Below are positions 8,337-15,809 of a stretch of 64,000 nt of DNA, in pieces. Numbering within the stretch: the first letter of the stretch is position 1; every line of letters starts with the position of its first letter. The stretch covers positions 206,650 through 270,649 of the forward strand of contig OZ242012.1 of NCBI GenBank assembly GCA_965204795.1, read 5' to 3'. Origin of the DNA: Thermodesulfobacteriota bacterium. GTDB lineage: Bacteria > Desulfobacterota_D > UBA1144 > Nemesobacterales > Nemesobacteraceae. The position numbers and the translations under genes are program-made. A model generated the notes under the pieces. It was not told the origin of the DNA, did not search any database, and worked only from the letters and a program-made list of their open reading frames with translations.

Positions 8337-8525
8337 ATGAGCAAAAAGGAGAAAGTCCAGGACAACTATCTTGAAACGTTGGAAAAGGTTAAACAGCAGT
8401 ATCAAGAATATATCGAGGTCAGCAAAATTTACGAACTGCCCACGTTTGAAGAAGAAAAACCGATAGAATACCAGCCCCCTAGCCCCGAACATCCACTGAC
8501 GACCAATACCTTCGACGTAAAGTAA
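8337..8525 (+). CDS. hypothetical small acidic protein (62 aa), first gene of a low-GC two-gene cassette
   Basis: AGGGGGA lies 6 nt upstream of the ATG. The product MSKKEKVQDNYLETLEKVKQQYQEYIEVSKIYELPTFEEEKPIEYQPPSPEHP... is E/K-rich with no TM segment. Local GC is markedly below the window average. The stop is 1 nt before the next start. Confidence 0.5.
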   Translation: MSKKEKVQDNYLETLEKVKQQYQEYIEVSKIYELPTFEEEKPIEYQPPSPEHPLTTNTFDVK

Positions 8526-8526
8526 A

Positions 8527-9480
8527 ATGGCTTCTTGGAGTGAACTGGCAAAGGCTCTTGCCAATCAGGGAAATGTTGTCAACTGGCTCTACGGTTCTCT
8601 GGCGGGTCGGCTGGGGGAAGTATCGAAGCTTCGCAAAGGAACTTCCGTCATTTTCTACGCCTCCGCTTTTCTGCAGAAAAAAAACTCCACAAACGTGTCA
8701 ATCGACCGTGAGGACATCAACGGTTTTATGGACGCAATATACAAAGCTCAAACCGATAATGGCCTTACCTTGATACTTCACACGCCTGGCGGGGACATTT
8801 ACGCCGTTGAGAGCATAGTTGATTATTTACACGCCAAATTCTCCAAGATTGAAGTCGTAGTGCCGTACTTGTCCATGTCCGGCGGGGCCATGATGAGTCT
8901 TGCTAGCGACCTTGTGATACTAGGCAAGCAAAGCCAGCTTGGTCCAATTGATCCTCAGTTTTCCGCGGGAAACAAATCGTATTCCGCCAGAGCGATTGAG
9001 GAGGGATTCAACAATGCGAAAAAAGATATAGAGAACGATACCAGTCTGGCTCACCTGTGGGCTCCTATCCTGCAAAGCATGGGACCTTCGCTCATCACGG
9101 AATCTCAGAGAGCCTTGTCTTACAGCAAGGAATTAGTAAAGAAATGGCTCAAAGAGCGAATGTTCAAGGATGAAGACGAGAAGGAAAGAGAAAGAATCAT
9201 CAACGACATAGCGGGATATTTTAACGCTGAGAAAAAAGACGGCGACGAGGGAACAAAACTCGGGCAAGTTCACGTTCACGGGCAGAGGATAGGATTTCAA
9301 AAGCTCGAAGAACTTGGAGTAAGGGTGGAAAAGCTTGAAAAAAGCCAACCGTTGCAGACCGCCGTATTGACTGCATACCATTTGATGACTCTGATTTTTG
9401 AGAGGTCTCCTTCCCTGAAATTCATATCCAGCGACCAAGGCACTATGTGGTCTAAACAGCAACAAATTCGTACGCAATGA
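8527..9480 (+). CDS. ClpP/crotonase-fold serine peptidase of the SDH (S49-like, 'serine dehydrogenase proteinase') family
   Basis: 317 aa. ...GLTLILHTPGGDIYAVESIVDYLHAKFSKIEVVVPYLSMSGGAMMSLASDLVILGKQSQLGPIDPQ shows the SppA/ClpP-like oxyanion and Ser motif arrangement typical of PF01972. It sits in a low-GC island between erpA and the M24 peptidase. Confidence 0.65.
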   Translation: MASWSELAKALANQGNVVNWLYGSLAGRLGEVSKLRKGTSVIFYASAFLQKKNSTNVSIDREDINGFMDAIYKAQTDNGLTLILHTPGGDIYAVESIVDYLHAKFSKIEVVVPYLSMSGGAMMSLASDLVILGKQSQLGPIDPQFSAGNKSYSARAIEEGFNNAKKDIENDTSLAHLWAPILQSMGPSLITESQRALSYSKELVKKWLKERMFKDEDEKERERIINDIAGYFNAEKKDGDEGTKLGQVHVHGQRIGFQKLEELGVRVEKLEKSQPLQTAVLTAYHLMTLIFERSPSLKFISSDQGTMWSKQQQIRTQ

Positions 9481-9580: not shown

Positions 9581-10711
9581 ATGAGCAGGACCGCCTACCT
9601 CATAATCGATTCGAGCGAAGCCAACTCGGACCTTTACCACAGAACGGGATTCTTCGTTCCGGACCCCGTCATATTCTTCGAACGCGACGGAAAGACCACG
9701 CTCGTTCTGAGCGACCTCGAGCTTGAAAGGGGCGAAAAGCGGGGCGCCGCCGACGAGATAGTCTCCTTCTCGCGCTGCGTCGCCGGGCTTCGCGGCAAGG
9801 GAAACAGGTCTCCCTCGACGGCGGAGGTCGCCGCCGCGGTTCTTCAGGAAAGGGGAATAAGAAGCCTCGTCGTCCAGAGAACCTTTCCCGTCTTTTTCGC
9901 CGACGCTCTCCGCGAGGCCGGTTTTTCCGTGAAGACCGCGAAGACGCATTTTCTTTTCGAGGACCGTCTCGTAAAATCCCCCCGGGAGGTCTCGTTCATA
10001 AAAAAGGCGCTTTCCGTCACGGCGCAGGCGATGAGACGCGCGGTCTCGCTCGTCTCGTCCTCGACTCCGAAGGGAGGACTTCTTTTTCTCGGGAAAAAGC
10101 CTCTCACCTCCGAGACGGTGAGGTCGGAAATCGACTCCTTTCTCGCCGCCCGGGGCTACCTCGCCTCGAACACCATAGTGGCGGGAGGGGTTCAGGGCTC
10201 GATGCCCCACGAGAAGGGCTCGGGACCGCTTCGGGCCGGGTGGCCCGTCGTGATGGACATATTTCCCCGCTCCCAGGAAAACGGCTACTTCGGCGACATG
10301 ACGAGAACCGTGGTCAGGGGGGAGCCTTCGCGGGAGCTTCTGCGGATGTACGACGCGGTGCTCGGGGGTCAGAAAACGGCGCTTTCGATGATAAGGGACG
10401 GCGCGAGGTCGAGGGACGTGCACGCGGCGGTGGAAGAGTTTTTCTCCGGGCGGGGTTTCGAAACGGGAGTTTCGGACTCGGGAAAGCCCCGGGGGTTCAT
10501 TCACTCCACCGGACACGGCCTCGGCCTCGACATCCACGAGCCGCCGAGGATTGGTCCGGGAAAGGAGATTCTCAGGGAGGGAAACGTCGTCACGGTGGAG
10601 CCCGGGCTTTACTACGAGAGTCTCGGGGGAGTGAGGATAGAGGACGTGGTGGTGGTCGGGCGCGGGGGGTGCGTTAACCTCACGAGATGCTCGAAGAGAT
10701 TCAGGGTGTAG
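9581..10711 (+). CDS. M24 family Xaa-Pro aminopeptidase / dipeptidase
   Basis: 376 aa. The pita-bread-fold metal ligands fall in the contexts ...GDMTRTV..., ...[13 protein letters not shown]... and ...VVTVEPGLY...GGVRIED. Confidence 0.85.
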
Positions 10712-11502
10712 ACGGGAGAAGCTCGATGCGGGAGAAAAAGACTTTCGACGACGTGGTTTCGCTCTCGAGGCGGCTTCGGGCCCCGGACGGCTGCCCGTGG
10801 GACAGGGAGCAGACGATGGAGTCGCTTCGTCCCTACGTTCTCGAGGAGGCGTACGAGGTGATACAGGCCATAGAGAGCGGGGACGCGGCCAATCTCGTCG
10901 AGGAGCTCGGAGACTTTCTCTTCCAGGTCGTCTTCATATCGCAGATAGCCCATGAGGAAGGAAAGTTCTGCGTGGACGACGTTCTGGCGGAACTCTGCGA
11001 CAAGCTCGTCAGAAGACATCCCCACGTGTTCGGGGAGAAAAAGGCGAAAAACGCGCGGGAAGCGGTCGACTCCTGGAACTCGCAGAAGAGAAAGGAGAAA
11101 AAAGGAAAGCCCGCCCTGGAGGAAGTGCCGAGAGCCCTGCCTTCTCTCATGAGGGCGCAGAGGGTCGGGGAGAAGGCCGCCCGCAGGGGATTCGACTGGA
11201 CCGGCGCCGCGGAGGTTCTGCGCAAGGTGAGGGAAGAGCTCTCGGAGCTTTCGCGGGAGATCGAGTCCGGAAATCTCGACCGCGCGCGCGGTGAGTGGGG
11301 CGACCTCGTTTTCTCCATGGCGAGCCTCGCGAGACACCTCGGCATCGACGCCGAAACCGCCTCCCACGAGGCCGTGGGGAAGTTCTCGGAGAGATTCTCG
11401 CTGCTGGAAAAAGCGGCCGAAGCGCAAGGCGGGGACATGGACGGCATGTCCGCCGAACGGCTCGACCGGCTCTGGGAAGAGGCCAAAAAATCCCGGCCGT
11501 AA
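10687..11502 (+). CDS. mazG: nucleoside triphosphate pyrophosphohydrolase MazG
   Basis: Tandem EExxE MazG motifs: LEEAYEVIQAIE...EELGDFLFQVVF and a second LREELSEL...GEWGDLVFS. An alternative start at 10726 (MREKK...) would avoid the 25-nt overlap with the upstream gene. Confidence 0.85.
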   Translation: MLEEIQGVDGRSSMREKKTFDDVVSLSRRLRAPDGCPWDREQTMESLRPYVLEEAYEVIQAIESGDAANLVEELGDFLFQVVFISQIAHEEGKFCVDDVLAELCDKLVRRHPHVFGEKKAKNAREAVDSWNSQKRKEKKGKPALEEVPRALPSLMRAQRVGEKAARRGFDWTGAAEVLRKVREELSELSREIESGNLDRARGEWGDLVFSMASLARHLGIDAETASHEAVGKFSERFSLLEKAAEAQGGDMDGMSAERLDRLWEEAKKSRP

Positions 11503-11505
11503 GTT

Positions 11506-12336
11506 CTAGAAACTCAGGCGCAAGCCCATGTCGAACGCGTGAAAGGGCTTTGCGGTCACGGAGACGGGCGCGGTCAGTCTTTCCGCGGCGAGGGCCAGAT
11601 TCAGGGAAGGCATGTGGACGAAGCGGTAGCCCGCCTGAAGCGCGAGGGACGGGGACAGGCGGAATCCGGCTCCCGCCTGAAGCTGCCAGATAAAGCCCCA
11701 CCGGTCGCTGGCTTTGTGGAACACTTTCGCCGGGGCGGTGTTCTGCTCGAGAGCCTCTCTGAGGTGGTCCAGATCTTCGAGAGGGGCTTCCGCCCTGGTC
11801 CTTATGTCGAGGTGAAACGTGCCGTGGACCGTCCCGGCGCCCGCTCCCACGTAAGGGCGAAACGCCCCGCCGACCGGAACGTCCCAGTAGGCGTTGACCA
11901 TGCCGGCCCAGACATCGAGGCGGCCCGAATCCCGGATGTCGCTCCCCGTGCTCGCCGACTGCTCGGGCGTGAGAGGAATGTTTCTGCCCCGCGCGTCCAG
12001 AAAACGGTGCGTGCGTACGATGCGGTCTATGCCCGCGCGCTGCCAGAACGCCTCGGTCTCGATTCTGAAGTCCCCTACGCGTCTGCCCGCGGCGAGCGCC
12101 GCTCCCCAGCCGGTTTTGAACTTCACGTCGGCGAGAAGATCGATCCTGGTGTTCGAGAATATCCCGTAGGGCATCGCGAGGTCGGCTTTTTCCGCGAGGG
12201 AGACGCCCCCGCGTCCCGACACGTACCAGTTTTTCTCCTCGCTTTCCCGAGCGGCCGCCGGGAACGCGGCCGCCAGGCACAGAAACACGGCGCACAGAAC
12301 CGCGGTCCGCGCGCCCGTAGGCGACGTTTTATTCAT
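11506..12336 (-). CDS. outer-membrane beta-barrel protein (OmpW/OmpA-like beta-barrel domain) with signal peptide
   Basis: The signal peptide is MNKTSPTGARTAVLCAVFLCLAAAFPAAA. The body has alternating hydrophobic beta-strand periodicity and ends in the aromatic residue ...GLRLSF. Confidence 0.7.
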   Translation of the reverse strand: MNKTSPTGARTAVLCAVFLCLAAAFPAAARESEEKNWYVSGRGGVSLAEKADLAMPYGIFSNTRIDLLADVKFKTGWGAALAAGRRVGDFRIETEAFWQRAGIDRIVRTHRFLDARGRNIPLTPEQSASTGSDIRDSGRLDVWAGMVNAYWDVPVGGAFRPYVGAGAGTVHGTFHLDIRTRAEAPLEDLDHLREALEQNTAPAKVFHKASDRWGFIWQLQAGAGFRLSPSLALQAGYRFVHMPSLNLALAAERLTAPVSVTAKPFHAFDMGLRLSF

Positions 12337-12450
12337 CTTTTTCTCCCGTCCGACCGGCGCGGGATTTTTTTCTCGGGGAAAAGGGCGCGGAAACGGACAT
12401 GATGAAATGATGACGGACGGCGGGAATTTTTCAAATTTTGGTACACGTCA

Positions 12451-12478
12451 TTGAAACTGTTCATTTATGGAGTAAAAT
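12451..12478 (+). promoter_or_regulatory. sigma70-like promoter (TTGAAA-N16-TAAAAT) upstream of the Panacea-domain gene
   Basis: TTGAAA at 12451-12456, a 16-nt spacer, then TAAAAT at 12473-12478. AAAAGGGAGA RBS precedes the ATG at 12500. Confidence 0.35.
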
Positions 12479-12499
12479 TTAAAAGGGAGATTTTATATA

Positions 12500-13018
12500 A
12501 TGCGGGAAAGCATTTGCAAAGCGGCACACATCGCGAATTTGATCCTCAACAGAGCGGATGCGGAAGGGCGAGATATAAGCATTTTGAAACTGCTCAAGCT
12601 GGTCTACATATTTTTCGGCTGGACAAGCGCCTTTCATACCAACCGCCCCGACCTCTTTTCAGACCGCATAGAAGCTTGGAAATACGGTCCCGTGATTCCC
12701 TCGCTTTATTACGAATTGCGCAGATTCGGCAGAAAGCCTATTAAAAGGGATCGCGCGCTTGTCTACGACCCTTCGGCCGATGCATCTCCCAGAGTGGCGC
12801 TGGAAAGCGAAATTGATGATAAAGAAGTACTTAAAACTCTGGAACTTCTCTGGAACTCGTATAAGGATGCCCCGGCGGAGCACATAGTCGCCCTGACACA
12901 TCAGGAAGATACTCCATGGCGGAAAGTTTATGACGAGAAAAAATATGGTACAGAGATTCCGAAGAATCTTATTCGGGATTACTACAAAGACTTGTATGAA
13001 AGGTTTGCTGCTAATTGA
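12500..13018 (+). CDS. Panacea-domain (DUF4065, SocA/PanA-type) antitoxin-like protein
   Basis: ILKLLKLVYIFFGWTSAFHTNRPDLFSDRIEAWKYGPVIPSLYYELRRFG fits the DUF4065 signature (KLqKLlYyaqgw...pLf.d.ieAWk.GPVvp.lY). Low-GC island. The stop overlaps the next start. Confidence 0.8.
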   Translation: MRESICKAAHIANLILNRADAEGRDISILKLLKLVYIFFGWTSAFHTNRPDLFSDRIEAWKYGPVIPSLYYELRRFGRKPIKRDRALVYDPSADASPRVALESEIDDKEVLKTLELLWNSYKDAPAEHIVALTHQEDTPWRKVYDEKKYGTEIPKNLIRDYYKDLYERFAAN

Positions 13019-13362
13019 TTGAAGGTAATAATAAAAGAAGACTGGTTGCCCGAGCTCTGCGGGAATTGATAGAAGAGCAGAGCGAGCAAAATGAATCGCA
13101 CTACGAGGGTCTTGCCGATGAGCGCTACAGGGAAGAAACTGCCGTAATAAAGCAGGAACGGGAATTACAAAAAAGAGTTGCGCGCTGGGTGATGTGGGTG
13201 GTTTCTGTGTGGCTTTTTTTCATAGCCGTCTTGTTGGTTTGCGTCGGGAGTTCTCAGCTCAATTACTCCGACGGCGTTCTTATCGCCTTGCTTGCGACGA
13301 CCACCGCCAACATCATAGGCTTGGCGTATTTCATGGCGAAGGGATTTTTCCCAAACAAGTAG
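13015..13362 (+). CDS. small two-TM membrane protein, candidate PanT-type toxin (115 aa)
   Basis: TTG start at 13015 overlaps the TGA stop of the Panacea gene (TTGA), indicating translational coupling. The charged N-terminus (RRLVARALRELIEEQSEQNESHYEGLADERYREE) is followed by two hydrophobic helices (WVMWVVSVWLFFIAVLLVCV and VLIALLATTTANIIGLAYFMA). Confidence 0.55.
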   Translation: MIEGNNKRRLVARALRELIEEQSEQNESHYEGLADERYREETAVIKQERELQKRVARWVMWVVSVWLFFIAVLLVCVGSSQLNYSDGVLIALLATTTANIIGLAYFMAKGFFPNK

Positions 13363-13664
13363 CTTTTTGCTGTTGACTTCAATCTCCCGTTTCAGGGGCC
13401 TACACAAGGGTGGCAGGTTGTTGCGTTGGGTCGTTTCGCGGAGAAAAGCGGTTTTTTCAGGACGGCGCGTTCGACGCGGGCTTGAGAACGAAATTTCGGA
13501 AAAAACGGAGAAATCACCGCTTCCCGCGCGGAGATTCCGAGCCGGGTGGGATTGATTTTTCCTGTTCCATCCTTTATTATTGGTCGCATGTTTGCCGGCG
13601 GGGTCGCCGGACGGAAATGCCGCTCCGCTCCCGCAGGCCCTTTCCGGAAAGGAGGTATGCAAAG

Positions 13665-14594
13665 TTGAGAAAACATTGTTTTGAAACGGTCGCGGGTTTC
13701 GTGCTGGGCGCCCTGCTGGTGGTTTTTCAGGCGGTCCCGGCCGCCGGAGCCGCGGACGGAAGGAACGGAAGCGGATTCTACGTGGGCGTCGAAGCCGGAA
13801 TCTCGAAACCGCAGAATTTCAGGATCGCGCAGTTCGCGGTCAACCACCCGACGCGCTGCGACGTGCTGCTCTACTCTAATCCTTCCGACGCGCCCTCGGG
13901 CGGCGCGTGCGCGAACAACACGTCGTCCGAGCTTGTCGAAAACAGGTTCGGTCTCGGCGCGGGCTTCGCCGGAGGCGCGACTCTGGGATACTCGCTCGGC
14001 AATTTCCGCTTCGAGGCGGAATACCTGAACCGCCGCCAGGGCCCCGTAAGCAAGCTCATCAGTCTGGGCTCCGGCGGAAACGACCCTCTGGCCACCAAGC
14101 AGAACGAGTGGAGCGAGGTGGACCCGCCGTCGGAGAGAGTGAGCGACTTCACGGCACAGCATTTCTTCCTCAACGCCTACTACGATTTTCGAAACGATTC
14201 GCCGCTGACGCCGTATCTCGGCGGGGGAGCGGGCTTCGGCCTCGTGGACATGAGGTACACGGCCCGCTTCACGCGAAAGGGCAACCTCGGAACGGCCGAA
14301 TGGCAGCAGGCCGCCTCCGGCACCACCAGCATAGTCGACACCAAGCTTCGGGGCACCCCTTTCGGTTTCCAGGCCGTCGGAGGGGTCGACTACGGGCTCA
14401 CCGAGCGCACTTCGGTCGGCGTGAAGGTGCGCTGGACGCGGTTTCTGGGCTTCAAGGACAACGACAAGCTGTGGAGGACGATTAGAAGTCACGCCCCCGT
14501 CCGCGCCGACGGCACGACGCCGTTTACGAGCGGATTCGATCTGGGCGCGATGAACGTCTGGACGGTTACGGCTGGAATGAAGTATTACTTCTGA
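13665..14594 (+). CDS. outer-membrane beta-barrel protein with signal peptide
   Basis: TTG start at 13665 with GGAGG 9 nt upstream gives the signal peptide MRKHCFETVAGFVLGALLVVFQAVPAAGAADG. The body is rich in G, Y and F beta-strands and ends at the C-terminal residue F (...AGMKYYF). The 13410-start track ORF is an upstream artefact. Confidence 0.7.
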   Translation: MRKHCFETVAGFVLGALLVVFQAVPAAGAADGRNGSGFYVGVEAGISKPQNFRIAQFAVNHPTRCDVLLYSNPSDAPSGGACANNTSSELVENRFGLGAGFAGGATLGYSLGNFRFEAEYLNRRQGPVSKLISLGSGGNDPLATKQNEWSEVDPPSERVSDFTAQHFFLNAYYDFRNDSPLTPYLGGGAGFGLVDMRYTARFTRKGNLGTAEWQQAASGTTSIVDTKLRGTPFGFQAVGGVDYGLTERTSVGVKVRWTRFLGFKDNDKLWRTIRSHAPVRADGTTPFTSGFDLGAMNVWTVTAGMKYYF

Positions 14595-14603
14595 GCCCGC
14601 GCG

Positions 14604-15809
14604 TCAGGAAAGCAGTTTTCCCATGAGTTTCCATCCCCGCGCCTCGAAGACTCCGGTCGACCTCGCGCAGTCCTCGGTGTAGACCAGGGACTTTCGCTCT
14701 CCGGCGTCCGCGTCCGAGGAGTCGAGTATGGCGAAGGGCACGGGTTCGTTCACGTGGGTTCTCACGTCCACCGGAGTCGGGTGATCCGACATGACGAGCA
14801 CCCTGTATTCGCCGAACTCCCTTATCCCCTCGAGCGCCGGGCCCACCACCCTGAAGTCGAAGTCCTCGACCGCGCGCACCTTGAGTCCCGCGTCTCCCAC
14901 GTGCCCGGTTTCGTCGGTGGCCTCTATGTGTATCATCGCCAGGTCGACCCGGCGAAGCGACTCCAGCGCGTACTCCACCTTTCCCTCGTAGTTGGTGTCG
15001 AGATATCCCGTGGCCCCGGGAACGTCGATCACTTCCATTCCCGCGAACTTTCCTATTCCCTTCACCAGGTCGACGGCCGACACGACCGACCCGGAAATTC
15101 CGTAAAGCTCCCGCAGGGAGGGCATCTCGGGCCTGGTTCCCTGGCCCCACAGCCATATGGAGTCCGCCGTGTTTTTTCCCGACGCCCTTCTCTTGCCGTT
15201 CACGGGATGGTCCGCCAGGACGTCCTGGGATTTTTCCATGAGGGCCACGAGCTTTTCCGAACCGTCTCCCGAGGGAAGCCACCGTCCCGTCTCGCTTCCC
15301 GGAATGTCGTGGGGCGGAGTGGTTCGCACGTCGGGGTTTCCTCCGCGCCAGAGCAGAAGGTGGCGGTAGCTCACCCCCTGGCTCAGGGAGAACTCCTCGC
15401 AGTCGATTTCCTTCTTCAGGCTCTCGACTATCTCTCCCGCCTCCTCGTCCGTTATGTGTCCCGCGCTGTAGTCTTCGAGCAGCGTTCTTCCCCGTCTTCG
15501 CCGGAACGTGACGAGGTTGCAGCGCACGGCCACGTCCCCCTCGCCGAGCTCCACTCCTATGTTCGCCGCCTCGAGGGGAGCGCGGCCCGTGTAGTAGAGC
15601 GTCGGGTCGTAGCCGAGCACGGAGAGGTTTCCGACGTCGCTTCCCGGCGGAAGGGAGTCGGGGATGGTCTTGGCCGTTCCGAACGCCCGCGCGTTTCGGG
15701 CCACGAAGTCGAGGTTCGGGGTGCGGGCGGCCTCGAGAGGGGTCTTTCCCCCGAGACTCTGGAGCTTGTGGTCGGGCATGCCGTCGCCCTGGAGGATCAC
15801 GTATTTCAC
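14604..15809 (-). CDS. apgM: cofactor-independent phosphoglycerate mutase, archaeal type (ApgM family)
   Basis: 401 aa. MKYVILQGDGMPD...LDPGSDVGNLSVLGYDP and a metal-binding ...ATDETGH... context are characteristic of COG3635. Confidence 0.82.
   Translation of the reverse strand: MKYVILQGDGMPDHKLQSLGGKTPLEAARTPNLDFVARNARAFGTAKTIPDSLPPGSDVGNLSVLGYDPTLYYTGRAPLEAANIGVELGEGDVAVRCNLVTFRRRRGRTLLEDYSAGHITDEEAGEIVESLKKEIDCEEFSLSQGVSYRHLLLWRGGNPDVRTTPPHDIPGSETGRWLPSGDGSEKLVALMEKSQDVLADHPVNGKRRASGKNTADSIWLWGQGTRPEMPSLRELYGISGSVVSAVDLVKGIGKFAGMEVIDVPGATGYLDTNYEGKVEYALESLRRVDLAMIHIEATDETGHVGDAGLKVRAVEDFDFRVVGPALEGIREFGEYRVLVMSDHPTPVDVRTHVNEPVPFAILDSSDADAGERKSLVYTEDCARSTGVFEARGWKLMGKLLS

Follow-up and report, generated by a model that had tools for sequence, protein, structure and literature searches.

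A candidate PanA-PanT toxin-antitoxin module with a small membrane protein in a Thermodesulfobacteriota genome

A two-gene cassette in an AT-rich pocket

In a 64,000-nucleotide stretch of contig OZ242012.1 from a Thermodesulfobacteriota bacterium (assembly GCA_965204795.1), hereafter the window, we analysed a candidate toxin-antitoxin (TA) module that consists of a gene for a Panacea-domain protein and a gene for a small membrane protein. Coordinates refer to the window, and the loci compared with it carry numbers with the prefix L. The two genes lie in an AT-rich pocket (12340-13400) of about 48% GC between housekeeping and outer-membrane protein (OMP) genes of 63% GC; the composition profile gives 0.479 for the gene pair against 0.63 in both flanks, and this low-GC contrast is repeated in all syntenic relatives (L001, L003, L004 and L008). 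The putative antitoxin gene panA (12500-13018, + strand) starts with ATG and encodes a standalone Panacea-domain (DUF4065) protein of 172 aa, here called ORF A, which is recognised by its Pfam match, its motifs and its substitution pattern. The panT-like gene (13015-13362, + strand) starts with TTG and encodes ORF B, a small membrane protein of 115 aa and putative toxin, so named for the linkage of its family to PanA and the position of its orthologues 3' of PanA. The first-pass annotation had placed both open reading frames (ORFs) at these coordinates, with the stop of the first overlapping the start of the second, which is borne out by the sequence.

The cassette is preceded by a sigma-70-like promoter (12451-12478, + strand) with the -35 hexamer TTGAAA, a 16-nt spacer and the -10 hexamer TAAAAT, which matches 10 of the 12 consensus positions and is predicted to be functional; a scan of the region found six promoter-like sites where 1.1 were expected. 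Both the -35 (TTGAAA or TTGACA) and the -10 TAAAAT are kept in an alignment with L001, L004 and L008 despite diverged intergenic DNA around them, in agreement with the initial description of an AT-rich pocket with its own promoter. A Shine-Dalgarno-like element read from the sequence, GGGAG (12484-12488, + strand), lies 11 nt 5' of the PanA ATG and is partly conserved in the alignment. The 4-nt overlap TTGA (13015-13018, + strand), in which the panA stop TGA (13016-13018) runs over the ORF B start TTG (13015-13017), recurs in L001, L002 and L004-L007 and is consistent with translational coupling of the two genes. A sequence scan detected no intrinsic terminator 3' of ORF B, and an Rfam scan of positions 11000-15000 for an RNA antitoxin or riboswitch gave no match at E <= 0.1.

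The reading of ORF A as a DUF4065/Panacea protein, first made from the sequence alone, passes a profile search: residues 31-140 align with almost all of Pfam PF13274 (SocA_Panacea; profile positions 1-112 of 113) at E = 6.9e-14, and the 53.2 bits exceed the cutoff of 25.7; the protein also matches phrog_1281 (1e-34). The best NCBIfam match is SocA_antitoxin NF047745 (96.5 bits, 1.4e-27), but this equivalog model requires 190 bits, and ORF A is therefore classed with the Panacea proteins and not as a SocA orthologue. When aligned with 120 homologues, ORF A has Y62-G63-P64-V65, H134 and P139-W140 conserved in at least 96% of the 121 sequences, and the residues G, P and V of the GPV motif as well as H134 are conserved in all of them. 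The protein has no N-terminal helix-turn-helix, PAD1 or zinc-binding domain, which makes it a standalone PanA, and no extra C-terminal domain; a sequence search of the PDB returned no solved relative. The ratio of nonsynonymous to synonymous substitution rates (dN/dS) of panA is about 0.18, and the gene is under purifying selection.

ORF B begins with a charged, helical and predicted cytoplasmic region (residues 1-57; 13015-13185, + strand) that contains 12 K/R and 13 D/E and is proposed as the PanA-binding segment. It ends in a conserved juxtamembrane motif, KQ-E/D-x3-K/R-x2-A-x-W (family consensus QDxxxRKxxAxW), which in ORF B occupies residues 46-57 and reads KQERELQKRVAR. The first transmembrane (TM) helix, WVMWVVSVWLFFIAVLLVCVG (residues 58-78; 13186-13248, + strand), reaches Kyte-Doolittle values of up to 2.87 in 19-residue windows and a predicted local distance difference test score (pLDDT) of about 90, and its W58, S64, W66 and L67 are invariant among the orthologues. 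The second (residues 87-108; 13273-13338, + strand), with a hydropathy of 1.5-1.9 and modelled as a helix over residues 86-111, carries the family signature LL-A-TTT-x-N-I-I-G-L, which is invariant in the orthologues and whose TTT.N core occurs in 135 of 156 family representatives. An 8-residue loop joins the two TM segments, and since basic residues flank the pair of segments on the N- and C-terminal sides, an N-in/C-in hairpin is indicated. The AlphaFold2 model from a 129-sequence family alignment (mean pLDDT 81.7) comprises helices 5-78 and 86-111, the former a single long helix in which the charged region continues into TM1, while a model from 8 sequences was poor (pLDDT 59.7). Hydropathy and model together match what had first been noticed in ORF B, a charged N-terminus (25 of 57 residues) followed by two hydrophobic helices.

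The dN/dS of ORF B is about 0.42 in the TM part and about 1.1, near neutral, in the N-terminal half when compared with L001, and orthologues of 58-97% identity all share its C-terminus unchanged. Because of the low ratios of panA and of the TM part, together with the invariant C-terminus, both ORFs are real genes. No significant Pfam, NCBIfam or PADLOC family was found for ORF B; its weak matches comprise phrog_13343 and phrog_26171 (about 1e-6, C-terminal part) and a PADLOC CARF-TM effector (E = 0.0066).

Conservation of the pair and a large family linked to PanA

A word-indexed search found only seven close orthologues of ORF B, all directly 3' of PanA. The pair is syntenic in five related lineages with toxin identities of 58-97%, in the gene order M24 peptidase, MazG, PanA, ORF B, OMP, cofactor-independent phosphoglycerate mutase, DUF2237 and EPSP synthase, and neither ORF is disrupted in the window or in L001-L007. 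The M24 peptidase of the window is 90.7% identical to that of OZ251569.1, a complete 2.27-Mb Thermodesulfobacteriota metagenome-assembled genome (MAG). Given a cassette of 48% GC inside a genome of 63% GC, the best explanation is a horizontal gain before this Thermodesulfobacteriota lineage diversified, followed by vertical inheritance at one chromosomal site.

Beyond these relatives, ORF B is no orphan, as it belongs to a large uncurated family that is coupled to PanA almost without exception. An exhaustive profile search recovered at least 2,113 representatives of 50%-identity clusters at E <= 1e-3, among them 277 at E <= 1e-10; nearly all members are 100-150 aa long, and the consensus reads KQD-x3-RK-x2-A-x-W-V-x3-VS-x-WL...G...SD-x-VLITLL-x-TTT-x-NVLGL...KGLFP. 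A degenerate 63-nt DNA pattern built on the C-terminal signature, with an expectation of 0.02 matches by chance, located 35 loci in reference genomes, with Thermodesulfobacteriota, many Bacteroidales, a Lachnospiraceae and Candidatus Deianiraea as hosts, and 56 loci on viral contigs. Panacea genes at these loci were called with locally built hidden Markov models (HMMs). A same-strand Panacea gene lies 5' of the family member in 30 of the 35 genome loci (directly adjacent in 29, separated by an insertion sequence in L014), and two further genome loci are cut at their ends; among the 56 viral loci it lies directly 5' in 51, and the remaining five are at locus edges. The two genes lie close together or overlap (median spacing -8 nt, measured on the longest ORFs), and the genes flanking the pair vary between taxa. 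The two genes are therefore conserved as a unit, which the first-pass annotation had marked as a point to check, both in the syntenic relatives and across phyla.

Escherichia coli carries at least five variants of PanA with a family member, some on Stx/lambdoid prophages, where they lie beside a BsuBI restriction-modification system or between the repressor and kil/gam/bet, and others on integrative and conjugative elements (ICEs). Three of the E. coli partners score about 40 bits each with the ORF B family HMM. The pair of the Stx2 phage Lyz12581Vzw (WP_000331648.1 and WP_001292087.1) resembles that of the window in that PanA lies directly 5' with a stop/start overlap and in that the partner (40.5 bits, 27% identical over 100 residues) shares the motif SD-VLIA...T-N...G-FP with the family; this partner is annotated as a hypothetical protein. 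The E. coli prophage and ICE partners differ from ORF B as a divergent subfamily with a less hydrophobic TM1, and their genes differ from the window pair in lying on mobile elements by restriction-modification or recombination genes. In the Stx2 prophages L012 and L013 the pair is directly 3' of a BsuBI/PstI restriction-modification system, and in the E. coli ICEs PanA follows traD/TIGR03747, with a 153-aa family member in L050 or alone in L051.

Several family members have exchanged their partner. Candidatus Deianiraea vastatrix (L020, 2849-3708) has a second family copy, and the gene that overlaps it is of the Peptidase_M78/ImmA type (61.8 bits) and also matches the spr1629 repressor/antitoxin family of NCBIfam. 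Another Thermodesulfobacteriota genome, OY729416.1, has two family copies (L027, 5789-6309, and L019, 1948-2473) after a gene of 68-69 aa with an ATGA overlap, the toxin copy of L019 being frameshifted. The 68-69-aa partner has sub-threshold matches only (RHH_1, 16.5 bits against a cutoff of 20.5; ORF56, 20.4 against 50); an assignment to the ribbon-helix-helix (RHH) proteins was rejected with these scores, and we refer to it as RHH-like only.

Other loci have kept PanA and lost the toxin gene. In OZ251569.1 (L008, 4510-5930, the same locus as L014) an IS30-like element (HTH_38 and rve, 322 aa, terminal inverted repeats TGCGGTTTCAAGT.../...ACTTGAAACCGCA) interrupts the toxin gene behind the ...ERELQ codon, and PanA is intact. 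A 2.39-Mb relative (ctg6910c) has toxin remnants in two frames (39.7 and 37.6 bits) beside an intact PanA (L010, 3524-3900) and, elsewhere in its genome, a tandem of two PanA paralogues that lacks any toxin gene (L009/L011, 3001-4072). Likewise, the E. coli ICE L051 carries PanA alone, where its sister ICE L050 carries PanA with a family member. Partner swapping as seen in this family is typical of TA toxins, and because of this swapping and the asymmetric decay of the toxin genes, the small membrane protein is probably the harmful component.

The left flank of the cassette consists of the M24 peptidase, MazG and an OMP gene, and the right flank of an OMP and the phosphoglycerate mutase gene. 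The left OMP gene (11506-12336, - strand), for a beta-barrel protein of 276 aa between MazG and PanA, is shared with the 97%-identical contigs L004/L005 and absent from L001-L003 and L008; owing to this extra gene, the cassette is bracketed by two genes of the OMP_b-brl family in the window lineage. The mechanical ORF of the downstream OMP (13410-14594, + strand) has 394 aa from the GTG at 13410, about 80 residues more than the called orthologues (309-321 aa), and its true start is probably near 13660; ORF B would then be followed by about 300 non-coding nucleotides, in which no terminator was detected. The two-domain MazG pyrophosphohydrolase gene (10687-11502, + strand) is directly 5' of the PanAT cassette in L001, L003 and L008 and resembles mazEF-mazG, an arrangement to which Kurata et al. 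refer (PMC8832971), but its adjacency is probably coincidental, since the gene to which MazG is coupled is the M24 peptidase gene, a housekeeping gene. Synonymous divergence (dS) is uneven within the operon (PanA 0.78, ORF B 0.27 and MazG 0.34 against L001; 1.46, 0.66 and 0.37 against L003), as might result from allele exchange at panA or from a mutational history of its own. A second AT-rich islet (8337-9480, + strand, 45-49% GC) between an Fe-S assembly gene and the M24 peptidase gene holds a 62-aa ORF and, directly behind it, the gene for a 317-aa serine protease of the SDH family (PF01972); L005 has the islet, whereas L001, L003 and L008 lack it at this site, and it looks like another small accessory two-gene insertion.

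Interpretation of the pair and its alternatives

PanAT modules were defined by Kurata et al. in 2022 (PMC8832971), who validated three membrane PanTs, from E. coli STEC O31 (T3; WP_000019185.1), Bartonella apis/choladocola (T12; WP_077993242.1, NetFlax node D11; PMC8832971, PMC10440598) and Helicobacter (T4; WP_095295403.1). The E. coli and Bartonella PanTs depolarise membranes, and SYTOX Green can enter through the pores that they form; substitutions in the GPV motif were tested in the same study (PMC8832971). Ernits et al. (2023, PMC10440598) showed direct neutralisation by a standalone Panacea protein of Bartonella, which contacts the N-terminal region of PanT_D11 and a short helix before its TM segment, and Y56A and H120E in this PanA abolish neutralisation; Y62 and H134 of ORF A may be the equivalent residues, judging from position only. 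The window pair resembles the T3 and T12 modules in having a standalone Panacea gene with the GPV motif first and a small partner second, separated by an overlap or a gap of few nucleotides, and ORF B shares the layout of T3/T12 and D11, in its case with two TM segments after 57 N-terminal residues that hold 25 charges. The 4-nt overlap, conserved adjacency and differing flanking genes also fit the criteria by which PanAT pairs were predicted in 2022. The taxonomic spread of the ORF B family (Bacteroidales, Gammaproteobacteria) is similar to that of T3: Porphyromonas, Paraprevotella, Flavobacteriia and many Gammaproteobacteria are in the published T3 table, as is another member, from V. cholerae (WP_088132352.1), that is marked as toxic there. 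The antitoxin-toxin spacings of -11 and -4 nt that recur in this table (PMC8832971) are also found at ORF B family loci. The window pair differs from T3 and T12 in its Thermodesulfobacteriota host and in its fixed, vertically inherited chromosomal site with no obvious mobile element.

Taken together, the two genes probably constitute a type II PanA-PanT TA module, organised as a translationally coupled bicistron with its own promoter, in which toxicity is predicted by analogy. The proposal of a candidate PanA/PanT module made on first inspection thus gains support from the Panacea profile match, the conserved linkage and the layout of the validated membrane PanTs (PMC8832971, PMC10440598). In the mechanism that we envisage, the conserved promoter would drive the coupled panA-panT bicistron, and ORF B would form an inner-membrane hairpin of two helices with both termini in the cytoplasm. 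By analogy with the validated systems, free ORF B may oligomerise and depolarise or permeabilise the membrane; the pore or defect, lined by the conserved polar Thr-Thr-Thr-x-Asn face of TM2, would dissipate the membrane potential. ORF A, which like the Bartonella protein has no accessory neutralising domain, would bind the cytoplasmic N-terminal helix of ORF B and the juxtamembrane motif before TM1, as suggested by the PanT_D11:PanA contacts in Bartonella (PMC10440598), and might thereby block insertion or assembly of the hairpin. The N-terminal half of ORF B is expected to be the specificity-determining PanA-binding segment because of its fast evolution (dN/dS about 1.1).

Several observations weigh against this interpretation or its novelty. 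In the assays of Kurata et al., eight PanTs, of which one was a predicted membrane protein, lacked toxicity in E. coli (PMC8832971). The cassette lies among housekeeping genes and is stably inherited with no integrase or defence island nearby, which is less typical of a mobile TA system, and ORF A has no DNA-binding domain that would explain autoregulation. A Foldseek search with the ORF B model returned no match in the PDB, nothing below E = 4 in BFVD and no informative neighbours, a helical hairpin being uninformative for a fold search. In a Chitinophagaceae MAG (L028, 5748-6545), PanA is present as two 74-aa ORFs in different frames, 5' of a family member of 107 aa that is intact. No other locus in this set has an apparently broken antitoxin beside an intact toxin, and an assembly error may be the cause. 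Finally, ORF B had been described at first as a protein of no recognisable family that may represent an undescribed toxin type. The first part stands as far as curated models in Pfam, NCBIfam and PADLOC are concerned, but ORF B most likely represents an already catalogued, uncurated PanT class and no new toxin type, because it belongs to a large PanA-linked family and because its layout and taxonomic spread match T3/T12, a match made by layout, taxa and gene spacing only.

The pair WP_000287252.1 and WP_000019185.1 was not found in walks through 5,426 E. coli genomes or in a protein and cluster search with the E. coli partner, and tblastn of the ORF B family consensus against plasmids gave nothing. 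The Stx2 phage partner is outside the pairs tested by Kurata et al., and their cluster T1, with its many Bacteroidales and Desulfovibrio members, was rejected as a counterpart, being a predicted soluble mRNase class whose tested members were non-toxic. We regard it as doubtful that the ORF B family is a separate PanT lineage, non-homologous to T3, T12 and T4, whose invariant polar TTT-x-N face of TM2 would form a distinct gated pore; the family would then be the dominant PanA partner on gut Bacteroidales phages and, in small-genome Thermodesulfobacteriota, a domesticated chromosomal module, possibly envelope-related between two OMP genes.

As to the role of the module in its host, the sequence fits either addiction-like persistence or abortive-infection defence, with a housekeeping neighbourhood on the one hand and a strongly phage-associated family on the other. 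The defence reading, in which the Panacea protein would sense a phage cue and the membrane protein would act as the effector that collapses the membrane potential, overlaps molecularly with a TA module and differs from it in role; we hold it to be tenable but somewhat unlikely. It draws on the 56 family matches on viral contigs, on the accessory positions in E. coli lambdoid prophages by BsuBI restriction-modification genes or between repressor and kil/gam/bet, and on the weak CARF-TM match of ORF B, although no PADLOC model matches PanA and the window cassette is outside any defence island, next to MazG, OMP and phosphoglycerate mutase genes. The M78/ImmA-linked copy also mirrors RosmerTA, a validated phage-defence system that pairs RmrA, an ImmA/M78 protease antitoxin, with RmrT membrane toxins such as RmrT_D5 of Gordonia phage Kita, which depolarises the membrane (PMC10440598). 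The Deianiraea family member with its Peptidase_M78 partner shares with RosmerTA the architecture of an antitoxin-type protein with a C-terminal-TM toxin and an effector expected at the membrane, but the gene 5' of ORF B in the window encodes Panacea only, the M78 partner being restricted to the paralogous Deianiraea member. A sensory role for Panacea has been proposed by Ernits et al., but mainly for multidomain PanAs and not for standalone ones (PMC10440598), and in the literature found no membrane-toxin PanAT has been shown to be anti-phage.

It is also conceivable, yet quite unlikely, that ORF B is non-toxic and serves as a membrane anchor or partner of PanA, for instance in superinfection exclusion or envelope-related signalling, domesticated between two OMP genes. 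Vertical retention over genus-level divergence among housekeeping genes, the flanking OMP genes, the lack of toxicity of several predicted PanTs in E. coli and a strongly conserved TM hairpin, whose polar TTT-x-N motif suggests a specific interaction, would all suit such a function. A dedicated PanA anchor is hard to square, however, with the swapping to M78/ImmA and RHH-like partners, and loci that have repeatedly lost the membrane gene but kept PanA are better explained by a harmful gene than by a cofactor; the near-neutral N-terminal half is likewise what is expected of a specificity determinant and not of a catalytic or signalling domain. The same decay of the toxin gene in relatives, the atypical GC content with no sign of amelioration and the undetected terminator after ORF B could be read as marks of an inert relic, a formerly mobile cassette that is no longer expressed or functional here, but we consider this very unlikely in view of the intact ORFs in the window and L001-L007, the dN/dS values of PanA and of the TM part of ORF B, and the conserved promoter elements.

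SocA, the founding Panacea protein, is the antitoxin of SocAB, a type VI TA system of Caulobacter crescentus in which SocB binds DnaN. The antitoxin of the window shares the Panacea domain with SocA and has the SocA model as its best NCBIfam match (1.4e-27), at a score far under the equivalog cutoff (96.5 against 190), while ORF B, with two TM segments, has no similarity to SocB and no other curated match. A protease-adaptor mechanism as in SocAB, in which PanA would deliver its partner to ClpXP and no inhibition by direct binding would take place, is thus unlikely for the window pair, and as a full account of the locus we would put its chances as very slim indeed. ClpXP and Lon were moreover dispensable for neutralisation by other PanAs, for which direct complexes were shown (Kurata et al., PMC8832971), and a standalone Panacea protein neutralises a membrane PanT through a mapped interface (PMC10440598).

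The size of ORF B also sets it apart from another class of small membrane-active toxins. Type I toxins are Hok/TisB-like small hydrophobic peptides of under about 60 aa that are paired with antisense RNA, and this class was rejected for ORF B, which has 115 aa, a conserved protein partner and no Rfam match in 11000-15000.

Meaning for the ORF B family

Membrane-depolarising toxins of PanAT modules were already described in 2022, so that the locus itself offers little conceptual novelty, and its value lies in the definition of a family. At least 2,113 clusters of two-TM proteins that are annotated as hypothetical everywhere and have no Pfam, NCBIfam or PADLOC model can be recognised as members of one PanA-coupled family, which spans Bacteroidota, Proteobacteria, Firmicutes and Thermodesulfobacteriota as well as their phages. 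Toxin genes that are split by an insertion sequence or frameshifted beside an intact PanA, together with the M78- and RHH-partnered copies, offer natural comparisons for the recognition of a membrane toxin by a standalone Panacea protein. The shared signature, with the juxtamembrane KQ-D/E-x3-R/K...W, the TM2 motif LL-x-TTT-x-N-V-x-G-L and the C-terminal KGLFP, could seed a curated model, and such a model could improve the annotation of TA and defence systems in gut metagenomes.

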